The notes below the pieces were generated by a model, which worked only from the letters and a program-made list of their open reading frames with translations, had not been told where the DNA came from and did no database searches. Both the position numbers and the translations under genes were made by a program. A stretch of DNA of 64,000 bases from an uncultured Pseudomonadota bacterium (GTDB lineage Bacteria; Pseudomonadota; Alphaproteobacteria; RF32; CAG-239): assembly GCA_902785935.1 (NCBI GenBank), contig CADAAN010000006.1:4309-68308 (forward strand). The letters run 5' to 3'. Shown in pieces: positions 289 to 6,206 of the stretch. The number at the start of each line of letters is the position of its first letter. The stretch's first letter is position 1.

Positions 289-1476
289 ATGGTAATGAAA
301 AAAATATACTATACAGGAAAAGGTGGGGCTTTTAGGCTTTTTGTGGCAGAAAACAAAACTGACATCTGTGTTGTCGATTTTAAAAATGCATTAACAAAGA
401 CAGAACAAATTTTTATTGAAGAATATGCCTCTAAAATAGGATTAAGAAATAATTTACGACCTTTCCAAAATTTAAATGGTGTATATCAACAGGAGTGGTA
501 CAAAATCACAAAGCATTTTCTTAAACATGTTTCTCAAAATGGCGGACAAATTTCAGATATATGCGGCGATATACTAACTTTAAATGACCTCTCAAAAGCA
601 TATTTTGCTACAAAAAAAATACAAAATAAGCTTTGTTTTTATAAAATTGTACAGAAAATAAACCCAGACTATTTATTACCAAATTGGAAAATTAATAAGC
701 TAGAAAATCAAAAAAATGAATATCCACTCATTATCAAATCCTGTCAAGGAAAGGGCGGTAAAGGAAATATCGTATGCTATTCTGATTCTGATTTTGATCA
801 GTGTCATAAAATTTTAAATTCCAAGCTGTTTGCAAAAAAGCAAGAAAATGGACAATACAATACCTCAAACAAAATAATCATTGAAAAATTTTATCCCAAT
901 GCGGTCAGCTATAATTGTAGCTTTTACTGCACAAAGCAAGGAAAAATAAAATTTCAAAAGATATCACAACAAATAATTGAGGAAGTATTTTATAGAGGAA
1001 ACATTTATCCACCCCTGTTAACAAAATCACAACAGGAAGATGTTACGGAAATCAGTGAGAAAATTTGTCATATTTGCCATTCAGATTATGGATATGTTGG
1101 TTGGTTGGGTTTAGATTTTATTTTGCTTAATGATAAAATGCATATCATAGAAGCAAACCCCCGTGTCAATAGTGTTACACATGCGCATAAATTCTCCAAA
1201 GGCAATCCTTTTCTTATCAGGCTGATGCGGCATAAAGCGATGCAATTAACGGAGATTTTTGATAAATTCATTCTTAACCCTGTTACCGGATATGGAATAG
1301 TTCCTTACCAAATACCTGATAATGAAAATGTTCTTCTCCTCTCTGCAAATTCCACTTTAGAAAAAGCAGAGAATGAATTGAAAAGATTTGCTCAAGCAAA
1401 TGGACTAGAAAATGTCACTCAAGAAAATATTCTATCATTTTCTAAATCTGTTTCTTATTATTATACAAAGCTATAA
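289..1476 (+). CDS. ATP-grasp domain protein
   Basis: ORF track; motifs PLIIKSCQGKGGKGNIV, IIIEKFYPNA, GLDFILLNDKMHIIEANPRVNS resemble ATP-grasp ATP-binding/catalytic signature (xEANPR); true start may be ATG at 295. Confidence 0.5.
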   Translation: MVMKKIYYTGKGGAFRLFVAENKTDICVVDFKNALTKTEQIFIEEYASKIGLRNNLRPFQNLNGVYQQEWYKITKHFLKHVSQNGGQISDICGDILTLNDLSKAYFATKKIQNKLCFYKIVQKINPDYLLPNWKINKLENQKNEYPLIIKSCQGKGGKGNIVCYSDSDFDQCHKILNSKLFAKKQENGQYNTSNKIIIEKFYPNAVSYNCSFYCTKQGKIKFQKISQQIIEEVFYRGNIYPPLLTKSQQEDVTEISEKICHICHSDYGYVGWLGLDFILLNDKMHIIEANPRVNSVTHAHKFSKGNPFLIRLMRHKAMQLTEIFDKFILNPVTGYGIVPYQIPDNENVLLLSANSTLEKAENELKRFAQANGLENVTQENILSFSKSVSYYYTKL

Positions 1477-2155
1477 TAATTTCTGAAATACTTTGCTTAA
1501 CAATCGGATTTACATACTTTTTCTTCTGTCCGTTCATAAGAATTGTATTTTGTAACTCTTGATATAGGTTTTTGGAATTTATACCTAAAGTATTTGAAAT
1601 TTTTTCACTCCAGATATTAAGGGGCATTTCTCTGGTGAGGTGTAAATCAATATGTTCCCGTATAAAACGTGGATTTAAAAGCTTGTTTTTAATATGTTGT
1701 GTATAGAAAGTTATCCTCTTCTTACGATTTTCTTCGTCAAAATATTTTTTAAACTGCCGAGGAAGTTCTTGAACTTCTTCAGCATACTTTCCTTTGAATG
1801 ATAATAAAATATTCTTAAATTCAATTTTAGGATACGATTGAGATATTTGAGAAATCATCTCTATTTCATCAGTTCCGTTAATACAAAAAGCATATAGACT
1901 ATCTGAGATAATAAAATTTTCAACATCTTTCTTGCGAATTCCATAAGTTACTTCTTTATTGTACAAAAACAACTGATCAGGATGAAGTGATTGTTCATGA
2001 ACAATATATCTTTCCTCGTCATCTGATCGAATAGGCCGACTCGTTACTTGCGGAATAATAAAAATATTTGGATCTGACACACTTATTGCTTTTAAAAGTG
2101 TGCTCTTTCCGACACAGGACGTTCCCGTAATGGATATAAAGTACTTTTTATCCAT
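1442..2155 (-). CDS. guanylate-kinase-like P-loop kinase domain protein
   Basis: Walker A ITGTSCVGKSTL followed by TSRPIR..DEERYIV..E and TYGIRKKDV, matching guanylate kinase family layout (GxxGxGKST...TTRxPR...Y.F). Confidence 0.5.
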   Translation of the reverse strand: MDKKYFISITGTSCVGKSTLLKAISVSDPNIFIIPQVTSRPIRSDDEERYIVHEQSLHPDQLFLYNKEVTYGIRKKDVENFIISDSLYAFCINGTDEIEMISQISQSYPKIEFKNILLSFKGKYAEEVQELPRQFKKYFDEENRKKRITFYTQHIKNKLLNPRFIREHIDLHLTREMPLNIWSEKISNTLGINSKNLYQELQNTILMNGQKKKYVNPIVKQSISEIIIALYNNKKQI

Positions 2156-2576
2156 GGGCTTTTACACTAATTATCACAAAAGGAGTTGCATTGCATGACG
2201 TTAAGTCTTGTTTAAGAATCCATAATGCACCATTTGAATCTAAATCTGAAATATTTATATTCGGCTCTCCTTGTACTTGACAATCAAAAAGTATACCGGT
2301 ATGAATTAAACAGCCTGGCCTTCCATCATCTTCTGTAAAGTCCTCAAATCGTACAATTTCTTCTTTACGCGAGGTACAATCGACAAGTTTACAGCCTGTT
2401 TCTTCCATAATTTCTCGTCTTAATGTTTCAAGTTCCGTTTCTCCTTCTTCTGGAGATCCTCCCGGTAAATCATACATCCCAGTATAAGGCCCTCTTTTTT
2501 TTCTAATAAGTAATACCTTATTATTTTTTTCAATATACCCATATATTCCCTTATGTGTTCTAGTTATTTCTCTCAC
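2148..2576 (-). CDS. NUDIX hydrolase
   Basis: Nudix box GGSPEEGETELETLRREIMEETG (GX5EX7REUXEEXGU). Confidence 0.75.
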   Translation of the reverse strand: MREITRTHKGIYGYIEKNNKVLLIRKKRGPYTGMYDLPGGSPEEGETELETLRREIMEETGCKLVDCTSRKEEIVRFEDFTEDDGRPGCLIHTGILFDCQVQGEPNINISDLDSNGALWILKQDLTSCNATPFVIISVKAHG

Positions 2577-4768: not shown

Positions 4769-4880
4769 TTAATTCTCCAATCTTAATATGAAGATTAACT
4801 AATTCATATAAGAAAACAATTTTTTATTGACATTTATCCCGAAAATTGTATACGTTATTCTCCAAATAATGGAGATATTA

Positions 4881-6206
4881 ATGACTTTTTCATGTGGAAT
4901 TGACTTTGGAACAACAAATACTGCAGCAGCTCTATCGACAAGTAAAACCGAACCTACACTTATTCATTTAGAAGGTGATAGCGTAATAATCCCTAGTGCA
5001 CTATTTATCGGTATAGATAAAAAGATATATTTTGGCAAACAGGCAATGCAGTTGTATATGAATGGTGAAAACGGCCGTTGTATGCGTAGTTTGAAACGTG
5101 TGCTAGGTACAGATTTAATGATGTCTGGTACATATTTTAATAATAACAAAATTTCCTTTTCCGAACTTTTAAGTTGCTTTTTGAAAAACATAAAAAATAA
5201 AATTGATCTAGCGGCTGAAGCAAATGTTGACAGTGTTGTCTTAGGTAGACCTGTCCATTTTCAAGATAATAATCCGAACAGTGATATGCGTGCTGAAAAT
5301 GAACTGAGGCAAATAGCACAAAAAGCCGGCTTTAAAAATATAGAATTTCAATACGAACCGATTGCGGCCGCGTTTGCTCATGAATCAAAAATTACCGAAG
5401 AAAGTTTGGCTTGTGTTATTGATATTGGTGGTGGTACTTCCGATTTTTCAATTATTAAAATCGGACAACCACTTATGTTAAAAGTTGATAGAACAGATGA
5501 TATCCTTTCAAGCGTCGGTATTCGTATAGGAGGTAATGATTTTGATAAAGATTTGTCTTTGAAAGCATTCATGCCGGTATTTGGTTATCAAACACTACAA
5601 GGTGGACAAACACCTTACGATAAAGTCATGACTTTACCCACAATACCATTCAGAACAATGGCAGAATGGAGTTCTATCAACTCAATGTACACATATAAAG
5701 AACTTAATTTTGCAAAAAAAATGTTATTCAATGCTCAAGAAAAAGAAAAACTTCAGCGTTTTGTAGAATTAATTGAAAAGCAAAAAGGGTATTCCCTATT
5801 AAATACGGTTGAAAAAACAAAAATAAAATTAACTGAACAGTGCAAAATAAACGTACCATTGAATTTTATTTCTGATAAACCAGTTGTTCCTGTGTCAAGA
5901 CAAAATCTTAATGAATCTATAGAATTAGATGTCGCCCGTATTTTTAAGAAAGTAGATGAATGCTTTAGTCAAGCCGGCATCAAACCTGATGATATACAAT
6001 ATGTTATTTTGACTGGTGGTTCTACAGAAATCCCTTTAATTCAGAATATTGTTTCTCGTTATTTTCCGAATGCCGTTTTATCTCAAGACAACAAATTCTC
6101 TAGCGTAAGTATAGGTTTAACATACGACGGCATGCGAAGATTTTCAAAAAGAGAATCTTCTAAAGGATGTATGGTAGGTTCTCATACAGGATATTTAGGA
6201 CGATAG
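4881..6206 (+). CDS. Hsp70-family (actin-like ATPase, YegD/HscC-like) protein
   Basis: GIDFGTTNTAAA phosphate-1 motif, DIGGGTSDFSI phosphate-2 motif, ILTGGSTEIPLIQ; start at ATG 4881 with GGAG 7 nt upstream. Confidence 0.7.
   Translation: MTFSCGIDFGTTNTAAALSTSKTEPTLIHLEGDSVIIPSALFIGIDKKIYFGKQAMQLYMNGENGRCMRSLKRVLGTDLMMSGTYFNNNKISFSELLSCFLKNIKNKIDLAAEANVDSVVLGRPVHFQDNNPNSDMRAENELRQIAQKAGFKNIEFQYEPIAAAFAHESKITEESLACVIDIGGGTSDFSIIKIGQPLMLKVDRTDDILSSVGIRIGGNDFDKDLSLKAFMPVFGYQTLQGGQTPYDKVMTLPTIPFRTMAEWSSINSMYTYKELNFAKKMLFNAQEKEKLQRFVELIEKQKGYSLLNTVEKTKIKLTEQCKINVPLNFISDKPVVPVSRQNLNESIELDVARIFKKVDECFSQAGIKPDDIQYVILTGGSTEIPLIQNIVSRYFPNAVLSQDNKFSSVSIGLTYDGMRRFSKRESSKGCMVGSHTGYLGR

Follow-up and report, generated by a model that had tools for sequence, protein, structure and literature searches.

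The window analysed here is a stretch of 64,000 nucleotides from an uncultured alphaproteobacterium (RF32, CAG-239; contig CADAAN010000006.1, positions 4,309 to 68,308), and near its left end, between positions 289 and 6206, it carries six open reading frames (ORFs) that together make up a genuine rare cassette, horizontally mobile as one block. All six lie at the positions given by an initial annotation of this DNA. From left to right, they encode an ATP-grasp ligase of the ATP-grasp_3 type (289-1476, plus strand, 395 aa), a guanylate-kinase (GK)-like P-loop kinase (1442-2155, minus strand, 237 aa), a Nudix pyrophosphohydrolase (2148-2576, minus strand, 142 aa), a small-molecule kinase of the APH/choline-kinase fold (2560-3546, minus strand, 328 aa), a GT4-family glycosyltransferase (GT) of the retaining type with a GT-B fold (3530-4768, minus strand, 412 aa) and a YegD-type Hsp70-like ATPase that consists of the nucleotide-binding domain only (4881-6206, plus strand, 441 aa). 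The domains that had been listed for these ORFs are supported by Pfam above its cut-offs in five cases, and in the sixth, the P-loop protein, through a profile of its family.

The GT, kinase, Nudix and P-loop genes form an overlapping four-gene operon on the minus strand, of which the GT gene is the first. Their short overlaps, already pointed out in the initial annotation, measure 8 nt (2148-2155), 17 nt (2560-2576) and 17 nt (3530-3546). The ATP-grasp gene converges on the P-loop gene with a 3′ overlap of 35 nt (1442-1476), and the Hsp70-like gene is divergent from the GT gene. Because these two genes lie on the plus strand, convergent and divergent respectively, the cassette comprises three transcription units, and the single operon originally suggested for the six genes has to be abandoned. 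The stretch that separates the GT operon from the Hsp70-like gene (4769-4880) is presumed, from the gene layout only, to hold a bidirectional promoter, and a simple scan of it gave no consensus promoter. For the Hsp70-like gene, 4881 is the most likely start (441 aa), rather than the TTG at 4827, since the gene calls on four metagenomic contigs agree on this start and the alignment with E. coli YegD begins at residue 6. Upstream of the cassette, the preceding gene ends in a terminator-like hairpin (181-204). The cassette has a GC content of 30.6%, compared with 39.9% for the remaining window. Its six proteins contain neither transmembrane segments (maximum Kyte-Doolittle 19-residue score of 1.5) nor secretion signals, and a transporter gene is absent from its content.

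Transfer as one block

The contig of the window was found again in several metagenomes. In a different genome, however (loci L026 and L027 of our comparison), only window positions 222-6219 are held in common, at a nucleotide identity of 92%. On the left, homology to L026 starts 67 bp upstream of the ATG of the ATP-grasp gene, so that the shared segment on the plus strand includes the upstream (promoter) region of this gene (222-288), and everything to the left of 222 is unrelated. On the right, identity stops about 13 bp past the stop codon of the Hsp70-like gene (6207-6219). The block is flanked in L026 by genes for tyrosyl-tRNA synthetase (TyrRS) and AccB/AccC on one side, and by AnmK and an ABC transporter on the other. 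No repeat of at least 8 nt, whether direct or inverted, was found in common between the two cassette edges. Between the two copies the six genes are equal in length and free of stops, with ratios of non-synonymous to synonymous substitution (dN/dS) of 0.08-0.28, the values being 0.08 for the Nudix, 0.13 for the Hsp70-like and 0.15 for the ATP-grasp gene. Purifying selection is thus acting on all six genes.

Core and accessory genes

Our census covered about 13 distinct loci with flanking sequence available, their hosts ranging from Wolbachia to Bacteroidota. Each related locus that was examined has the GT4, APH-like, Nudix and GK-like families together, and this grouping is for that reason far beyond chance. 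The loci with all four families are the window itself, where the four family-specific proteins lie within about 5 kb, together with L009, L011, L014, L018, L021, L026, L028 (a decayed copy), L030, L031, L034 and L035. The gene order and overlaps of the window are identical in L009, L011, L014 and L026, and the copies in L018, L021, L030, L031, L034 and L035 were matched by family-specific profiles. L009, L011 and L014 represent three further settings, with the same order of GT, kinase, Nudix and P-loop genes, an adjacent Hsp70-like gene and protein identities to the window of 40-69%; the first of them is an alphaproteobacterial metagenome-assembled genome (MAG), where the module sits between acpS and lepB-rnc-era and no ATP-grasp gene occurs within 10 kb. 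A Bacteroidota MAG (L018) has the core accompanied by a methyltransferase and an Hsp70-like gene, a low-GC organism (L021) has the P-loop, ATP-grasp and GT domains joined in one protein of 998 aa, and a marine integrative element (L031) has a fusion of the P-loop and GT proteins. The remaining settings are a Wolbachia of Oedothorax gibbosus (L034) and two large contigs (L030 and L035) with the layout P-loop-GT-APH / Nudix. The suggestion that the six genes are one functional module is in this way borne out by the recurrence of the block in other genomes.

The invariant core of the cassette is formed by the GT4, APH-like, Nudix and GK-like genes, to which the ATP-grasp, Hsp70-like and methyltransferase genes are accessories. 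Other subgroups carry an S-adenosylmethionine (SAM) methyltransferase in place of the ATP-grasp ligase, and the Hsp70-like gene is missing from five loci that retain the four-gene core. The core domains also occur fused to one another, namely P-loop with GT (P0027), APH with P-loop (P0035 and P0038), Nudix with P-loop (P0051) and P-loop with ATP-grasp and GT (P0058). From these fusions and from the strict co-occurrence we infer a single pathway for the four activities. The GC content of the module is below that of its flanks in each of the 11 loci tested.

These families are very rare. An exhaustive HMMER scan of 1.84 billion representative proteins retrieved 51 relatives of the P-loop protein, and word-seeded searches among 5.8 billion proteins yielded 8 homologues of the kinase and 45 members of the GT family. 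A scan of the GTDB genomes with the GT alignment, in a collection without the window organism itself, returned one true but distant relative (L018) plus two unrelated GT4 genes. Scans of IMG/VR with the GT and kinase alignments gave no relatives, and a tblastn search of 50,697 phage records and 72,556 plasmids, with the P-loop-GT fusion as query, yielded generic GT4 genes only.

Some of the individual copies show peculiarities of their own. In the decayed copy (L028:9992-10937), a deletion of about 1.5 kb has joined the N-terminal 183 residues of the GT directly to the last third of the kinase, with the Nudix, P-loop, ATP-grasp and Hsp70-like genes still intact. The L014 version has a protein with a superfamily 2 (SF2) helicase C-domain adjoining the ATP-grasp gene. 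In Wolbachia, a 460-aa protein without any Pfam, PADLOC or PHROG match (L034:13371-14753, minus strand, OW370537.1) is encoded directly downstream of the Nudix and P-loop genes, at the usual place of the accessory genes. The distant variant in L030 is adjoined by an ATP-dependent DNA ligase, a phosphoribosyltransferase (PRTase) and a gene resembling phosphoribosyl pyrophosphate (PRPP) synthetase (L030:13192-16052); a link to the reconstitution of PRPP or NAD drawn from these neighbours was dropped, because L035, its closest sister locus, is without those genes.

The four core enzymes

The GT is recognised by Pfam as Glycos_transf_1 (63 bits, 3.2e-17), and its structure model, with a predicted local distance difference test (pLDDT) score of 91.7, matches GT4 and GT5 structures at E-values of 1e-16 to 1e-13. 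As expected for the GT4 family, the fold is a two-Rossmann GT-B, and the donor-phosphate motif G-x-x-R-K-G is present together with the C-terminal motif (D/E)-x7-E. Across its 45-member family the invariant positions include W47, E100, W104, E105, R125, H127, R235-K236-G237 and D321-x7-E329; G230, S231, E233, R235, K236, G237 and D321 are all invariant and E329 nearly so, and the acceptor domain contributes the two tryptophans and basic residues to the invariant set. The best folds in the Protein Data Bank (PDB) are glycogen synthase, sucrose-phosphate synthase, MshA, GlgM (TM-scores of 0.75/0.80), BshA and PimB', enzymes that use a sugar phosphate, inositol phosphate, malate or a glucan as acceptor. 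TarM comes no higher than rank 26 among these neighbours, and a protein O-glycosyltransferase is absent from the top 50.

The APH-like kinase exceeds the Pfam cut-off for APH (29.8 bits, cut-off 23.2) and keeps the catalytic residues K55, H198-G-D200...N205 and D217-F-D219, that is, the HGDxxxxN catalytic loop and the DFD metal-binding motif of this fold, which the structure model confirms (pLDDT of 88.8). The helical C-terminal lobe is of the APH/choline-kinase type. Among the best 50 Foldseek matches in the PDB, all have this fold and none is a eukaryotic-type protein kinase. These neighbours, nearly all of them characterised small-molecule kinases, include AmiN, homoserine kinase II, NahK, APH(9), APH(2''), aminopropanol kinase, maltokinase, choline kinase, YtaA and YihE. 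By sequence the best PDB match is amicoumacin kinase (E=4e-4). Homologues of this kinase were never found alone, without other genes of the cassette. APH-fold enzymes are typically anomeric sugar kinases, such as NahK, AmgK, MtnK and Mak. Altogether, the models of the kinase and the GT point to small-molecule chemistry, one of the options raised in the initial annotation.

The P-loop protein has no Pfam match above the cut-off. A profile of its 32-member family nevertheless finds guanylate kinase 1z6g in the PDB (E=3.5e-9), aligns by hhalign with E. coli Gmk (probability of 92.7%) and with PhnN (72%), and the protein matches the PHROG guanylate kinase at 5e-9. Eight residues are invariant in the 32 members: G11, G16 and K17, which belong to the Walker A motif, and R40, R43, D46, G72 and R147. 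The first five of them (G11, G16, K17, R40 and R43) align to the VSHTTRQPRPGE motif of E. coli Gmk, so that the Walker A motif and a TTRxxRxGE-type motif with the two arginines that bind the acceptor phosphate are present. On the other hand, no conserved acidic residue stands at the position of the guanine-recognising glutamate (FLEHAE in E. coli Gmk), and the NCBIfam guanyl_kin model gives 18.8 bits against a cut-off of 160.45. A role as guanosine monophosphate (GMP) kinase was rejected on account of the missing glutamate and of this score far below the cut-off. The fold named in the initial annotation, guanylate-kinase-like, can be retained, then, and the activity that such a name implies cannot, since by its sequence the protein does not appear to be a GMP kinase. 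Enzymes of the nucleoside monophosphate (NMP) kinase fold that yield non-nucleotide diphosphates are PhnN, which converts ribose 1,5-bisphosphate into PRPP, and MfnE, which converts F1-P into F1-PP in methanofuran synthesis. By analogy, the P-loop kinase is predicted to convert a phosphomonoester into a diphosphate.

The Nudix protein is the most conserved protein of the cassette (Pfam NUDIX, 54.2 bits, 2e-14). It carries an intact Nudix box of the form GX5EX7REUXEEXGU with the catalytic glutamates, in which G40, E46, R54, E55, E58 and E59 are invariant across 9 loci, as well as a family-specific motif, K-x-RGPY...DLPGG. Its nearest solved relatives, which are PDB matches at the superfamily level only, are Arabidopsis NUDX1, NudI, a NadM-Nudix fusion and MutT. 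Relatives of this kind include hydrolases of non-nucleotide diphosphates, such as AtNUDX1, a geranyl-diphosphate phosphohydrolase.

The two accessory proteins

The ATP-grasp protein belongs to Pfam ATP-grasp_3 (46.4 bits, cut-off 23.2, 6e-12) and shares 42-47% identity with its counterparts in L011, L014 and L028. The nearest NCBIfam models are LdmS (9e-13) and MfnD (1.4e-6), both amino-acid/amine ligases and both matched far below their own cut-offs, and the family profile finds 3df7, biotin carboxylase and carbamoyl phosphate synthetase (CPS) in the PDB, at the superfamily level only. On these grounds the enzyme is predicted to join a carboxylate to an amine.

The Hsp70-like protein scores 95.4 bits against Pfam HSP70, a profile that it covers only to about position 367 of 599, and it reaches 90-108 bits against the DnaK and HscA models, which have cut-offs of 620-820. 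Having the nucleotide-binding domain only, it is without the C-terminal substrate-binding domain and the lid of canonical Hsp70 proteins. The chaperone-like Hsp70 ATPase of the initial annotation is therefore right as to the Hsp70-like, YegD-type nucleotide-binding domain and wrong as to the rest: with the substrate-binding domain absent, a classical chaperone is not what the sequence predicts. Against NCBIfam PRK11678 (YegD) it reaches 8.2e-79 and 265.5 bits, below the cut-off of 331, and in BLASTP its full-length alignment with E. coli YegD shows 27% identity (E=4e-54). Identities to the cassette copies of L009, L011 and L014 lie at 45-59%, and the cassette profile matches the Bacteroidota copy at 4e-131. 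Three of the loci, L014 to L016, have two Hsp70-like paralogues each; in L014 (4286-6874), and also in L015 and L016, these are two divergent YegD-type genes lying side by side, 35% identical to each other. In E. coli K-12 (L033, NC_000913.3, 2147674-2153128) yegD is arranged tail-to-tail with yegI, a Ser/Thr kinase gene, followed by yegJ, pphC (PP2C phosphatase) and yegL (vWA). YegD-type genes hence adjoin kinase-containing modules in two unrelated settings, the cassette and the E. coli locus.

The integrase island

An integrase gene is found at window positions 8395-9552, in agreement with the integrase island described for this region. In this genome the cassette lies in a defence-island setting, flanked by a Shango system to the left and by AbiE remnants and the integrase to the right. 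The complete Shango anti-phage system (L005:950-6476) is located on the same contig, about 3.2-8.8 kb to the left of window position 1, and consists of SngA (TerB, 2.9e-40), SngB (ATPase, 3.1e-151) and SngC (helicase, 1.7e-209); the low-GC region that contains it appears to belong to the same island as the cassette. Between Shango and the cassette there are an ankyrin-repeat gene and four small genes without any family. The ankyrin gene is preceded by four to five iteron-like copies of GAAATCAAATAATG, spaced at 22-74 bp (L005:7356-7505).

To the right, a 312-aa protein with pentapeptide repeats and a C-terminal excisionase-type HTH_17 domain (6214-7152, minus strand) abuts the cassette edge, outside the block common to L026. 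It is followed on the minus strand (7165-8303) by the AbiEi antitoxin (253 aa, PADLOC 8.9e-78) and a 125-aa ORF whose match to the AbiEii toxin is confined to the C-terminal part of the model (positions 175-289 of 290), a pair that looks like a degraded AbiE toxin-antitoxin system. Between the integrase and an aas gene, a fragment resembling a tRNA 3′ end comprises the T-arm (CGGGGTTCGAGCCCCG), the acceptor strand and CCA (9748-9781, plus strand), and a 21-nt partial repeat of it lies 167 bp downstream (9929-9949, plus strand), each copy being followed by a hairpin and a T-run. Both are probably what is left of att sites after integration events; neither ARAGORN nor Rfam detected an intact tRNA or tmRNA there or within 10 kb to the left of the window. 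The aas gene directly beside the island is one of two paralogous Aas-type genes with acyltransferase and AMP-binding domains (9998-12169, minus strand, and 18405-20579, plus strand; 723 and 724 aa), which share about 68% nucleotide identity.

Among the other loci, L031, L032 and L034 likewise have mobile or phage surroundings. L031 is bracketed by two integrases, with MazE/PIN, Cas9-Cas1-Cas2, TrwC and Fic nearby, the Wolbachia module (L034) is placed among phage portal genes, ParE toxins, ParA and insertion sequence (IS) elements, and one relative of the P-loop protein adjoins phage lysis genes. On the other hand, most other copies, at least six loci, are embedded in housekeeping neighbourhoods (acpS/lepB-rnc-era, TyrRS/AccBC, tryptophanyl-tRNA synthetase and others).

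A proposed pathway and its nearest analogies

What we have at hand is an uncharacterised mobile accessory metabolic cassette built from familiar enzyme superfamilies. Our preferred reading, to which we would give slightly less than an even chance, is that it encodes soluble cytoplasmic enzymes that build and turn over a phosphorylated glycoside, of the sugar-phosphate or sugar-diphosphate type. The APH-fold kinase would phosphorylate a hydroxyl of a sugar-like or amino-alcohol-like small molecule, and the GT4 enzyme would transfer a sugar from a nucleoside diphosphate (NDP)-sugar to a small, probably phosphorylated, acceptor, as do GlgM, MshA and sucrose-phosphate synthase. The GK-like enzyme might then add a second phosphate to a phosphomonoester to give a diphosphate, in the manner of Gmk, PhnN and MfnE, and the Nudix enzyme would hydrolyse that diphosphate bond as an off-switch, a proof-reading or a maturation step. 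In the subgroup of the window, the ATP-grasp ligase may attach an amino acid or an amine, and the YegD-type ATPase could be an accessory ATP-dependent partner for assembly or regulation. The folds and catalytic motifs are directly observed, as are the obligatory co-occurrence of the core genes, their fusions, the transfer of the block and the selection acting on it; what we infer is the kind of substrate, the order in which the steps proceed, the occurrence of a diphosphate intermediate and the role in the cell. The role of the cassette is probably accessory, tied to life on mobile elements or inside eukaryotic hosts.

A bolder form of this scheme, which we hold to be rather doubtful, would have an anomeric APH-fold kinase followed by the GK-fold kinase produce a sugar- or disaccharide-1-diphosphate, in a PRPP-like and nucleotide-independent activation of glycosides with the Nudix enzyme as a dedicated off-switch. 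The product would be a new signal within the cell, or an activated donor, for bacteria whose life is spent on mobile elements or within eukaryotic cells, with the YegD-type ATPase as effector or regulator.

The absence of any recognised pathway, remarked on in the initial annotation, was confirmed by our searches: PADLOC, NCBIfam, PHROGs, IMG/VR and the phage and plasmid collections gave nothing specific to the cassette, and no description of the module was found in the literature on the domain combination, YegD, ternary/TCAD conflict systems and Wolbachia prophage cargo. As far as these comparisons indicate, no described system has more than two components in common with it, and the nearest analogies would be mechanistic. 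The GlgE pathway pairs GlgM, a GT4 maltose-1-phosphate synthase with a sugar-1-phosphate acceptor, with the APH-fold maltokinase Pep2/Mak, and GlgM is the best match of the cassette GT by TM-score, the maltokinase occupying rank 20 among the kinase neighbours. Identities are however of 10-13%, GlgE, TreS and GlgC are absent from the cassette, and the GlgE pathway for its part has no GK-like kinase, Nudix, ATP-grasp or Hsp70-like partner. The methanofuran enzymes MfnD and MfnE, together with PhnN, offer a second likeness, that is, the formation of a diphosphate from a non-nucleotide phosphomonoester by an NMP-kinase-fold enzyme (MfnE as F1-P kinase, PhnN as GK-family ribose-1,5-bisphosphate kinase) beside an ATP-grasp_3 amide ligase (MfnD as tyramine-glutamate ligase). 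Here the scores are far below the family cut-offs, the cassette lacks MfnA, MfnB, MfnC, MfnF and the C-P lyase genes, and its hosts are bacteria, so the resemblance is one of mechanism and not of membership.

In the mycothiol and bacillithiol pathways, the acceptor of a GT4 enzyme (MshA or BshA, both among the top fold matches of the cassette GT) is inositol phosphate or malate, and an amino acid is attached later by an ATP-dependent ligase; the cassette nevertheless has no deacetylase or Cys ligase of the MshC/BshC type, and its two kinases and Nudix enzyme are without counterpart there. The E. coli yegD locus is similar in the full-length alignment, in the architecture limited to the nucleotide-binding domain and in the kinase-containing neighbourhood, but the cassette protein falls below the NCBIfam YegD cut-off and the E. 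coli locus has no GT, Nudix or GK-like genes. Anantharaman, Iyer and Aravind are said to have predicted in 2012, by comparative genomics, Ter-linked biosynthetic modules for a 'nucleoside-like metabolite'. These modules are reportedly mobile and associated with stress or conflict, combining an ATP-grasp amidoligase with phosphate- and ribose-handling enzymes, and it is the TerB-containing Shango that neighbours the cassette; they reportedly differ in being built from PRTases, HAD phosphatases and TIM-barrel lyases, enzymes that the cassette lacks, and the PRTase at L030 did not recur in L035. A relation to the TCAD conflict systems (eLife, 2020), considered after a weak match to Pfam TCAD9, was rejected, as these are centred on MoxR-vWA or GTPase proteins and have no parts in common with the cassette.

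Several points weigh against the glycoside pathway. The arguments for specificity all draw on fold neighbours with identities of 10-18% and TM-scores of 0.55-0.80, and these neighbours include, at rank 14 for the kinase, the APH-fold protein kinase YihE/SrkA, whose NCBIfam model PRK11768 is matched at 1.2e-6. A kinase and a Nudix enzyme working on the same bond could run a futile cycle unless regulated. Moreover, the cassette contains neither a nucleotidyltransferase nor a sugar-modifying enzyme, and the donor must therefore come from host metabolism. The Hsp70-like protein would fit a protein-directed process better, and, as several copies lie in the surroundings of defence genes or mobile elements, the cassette could be aimed at something foreign and not at metabolism.

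Alternative explanations

The last of these points leads to a module for defence, counter-defence or another kind of conflict, whose enzymes would modify or deplete a nucleotide, a nucleotide-sugar or the nucleic acid of an invader, or would respond to infection by producing a nucleotide-like toxin or signal, with the Hsp70-like ATPase as sensor or regulator. The genomic setting speaks in its favour, as the cassette is enclosed in the integrase island between a complete Shango and AbiEi with a truncated AbiEii, and as the integrase- and toxin-rich surroundings of L031 and of the Wolbachia copy, the phage lysis genes beside a P-loop relative, the uniformly lower GC content of the module and the kinase/PP2C/vWA cluster next to E. 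coli yegD would all fit such a role. PADLOC-DB 2.0, however, provides no system-level match: it returns only the generic PDC-S07 Nudix (3.6e-11), PDC-M61B Hsp70-like (1.8e-14) and mad8 (6e-4) models, and nothing for the kinase, the GT, the ATP-grasp protein or the fusion proteins. The six housekeeping neighbourhoods, the lack of relatives in IMG/VR and in the phage and plasmid collections, and a gene content without nuclease, membrane effector or other obvious killing component also argue against it, and we regard a conflict role as unlikely, though worth keeping in view.

Somewhat less probable still is the modification of a protein or another macromolecule. The kinase, the GT and the ATP-grasp ligase would in that case phosphorylate, glycosylate and amino-acylate a protein, cell-envelope or nucleic-acid target, possibly a host protein in symbionts, and the YegD-type ATPase would hold or present the client. 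The Hsp70-like partner is indeed kept in two distant subgroups, the kinase is weakly similar to SrkA/YihE, RIO and Bud32, and the ATP-grasp superfamily includes the protein-tail ligases RimK and TTL. Several hosts look intracellular, as illustrated by Wolbachia and by the ankyrin and Skp1-POZ proteins that adjoin L035 and occur in this island. But each of the 50 structures closest to the kinase model has the APH/choline-kinase fold, with YihE/SrkA as the sole reported protein kinase, and the best neighbours of the GT are soluble enzymes for small acceptors or glucan. Five core-bearing loci dispense with the Hsp70-like gene, it is not obvious what a GK-like kinase and a Nudix enzyme would do on a protein, and none of the six proteins has a secretion signal or a transmembrane segment.

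Finally, the inactivation of an antibiotic or xenobiotic (an aminoglycoside, macrolide or nucleoside antibiotic) by phosphorylation and glycosylation, which are classical drug-inactivation reactions, would suit a mobile cassette whose kinase passes the Pfam APH cut-off and has amicoumacin, spectinomycin and aminoglycoside kinases among its best structural matches, yet the APH-like resistance determinant proposed in the initial annotation is very improbable, as no NCBIfam resistance model is matched and the kinase falls in no known resistance subfamily, such enzymes normally act alone whereas the four activities are here obligatorily linked and repeatedly fused, the GK-like kinase, ATP-grasp ligase and Nudix enzyme have no precedent in drug inactivation, and the cassette is found in uncultured environmental bacteria and symbionts and not in the 72,556 plasmids or E. 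coli-type clinical contexts searched.

Implications

If the glycoside pathway outlined above is correct, the cassette would represent an undescribed accessory pathway made of four very rare and co-evolving enzyme families, a ready-made block that hops between unrelated bacteria, Wolbachia and other likely intracellular lineages included. If its PRPP-like version held, it would moreover provide the first function for the orphan YegD-type branch of Hsp70 proteins. With a length of only 6 kb and sharp ends, the cassette lends itself to direct synthesis and testing. Working it out would define a new phosphorylated or diphosphorylated glycoside metabolite, would give a biochemical context to the orphan YegD branch of Hsp70-like ATPases, and would make clear whether this chemistry serves phage defence or the interaction between symbiont and host.

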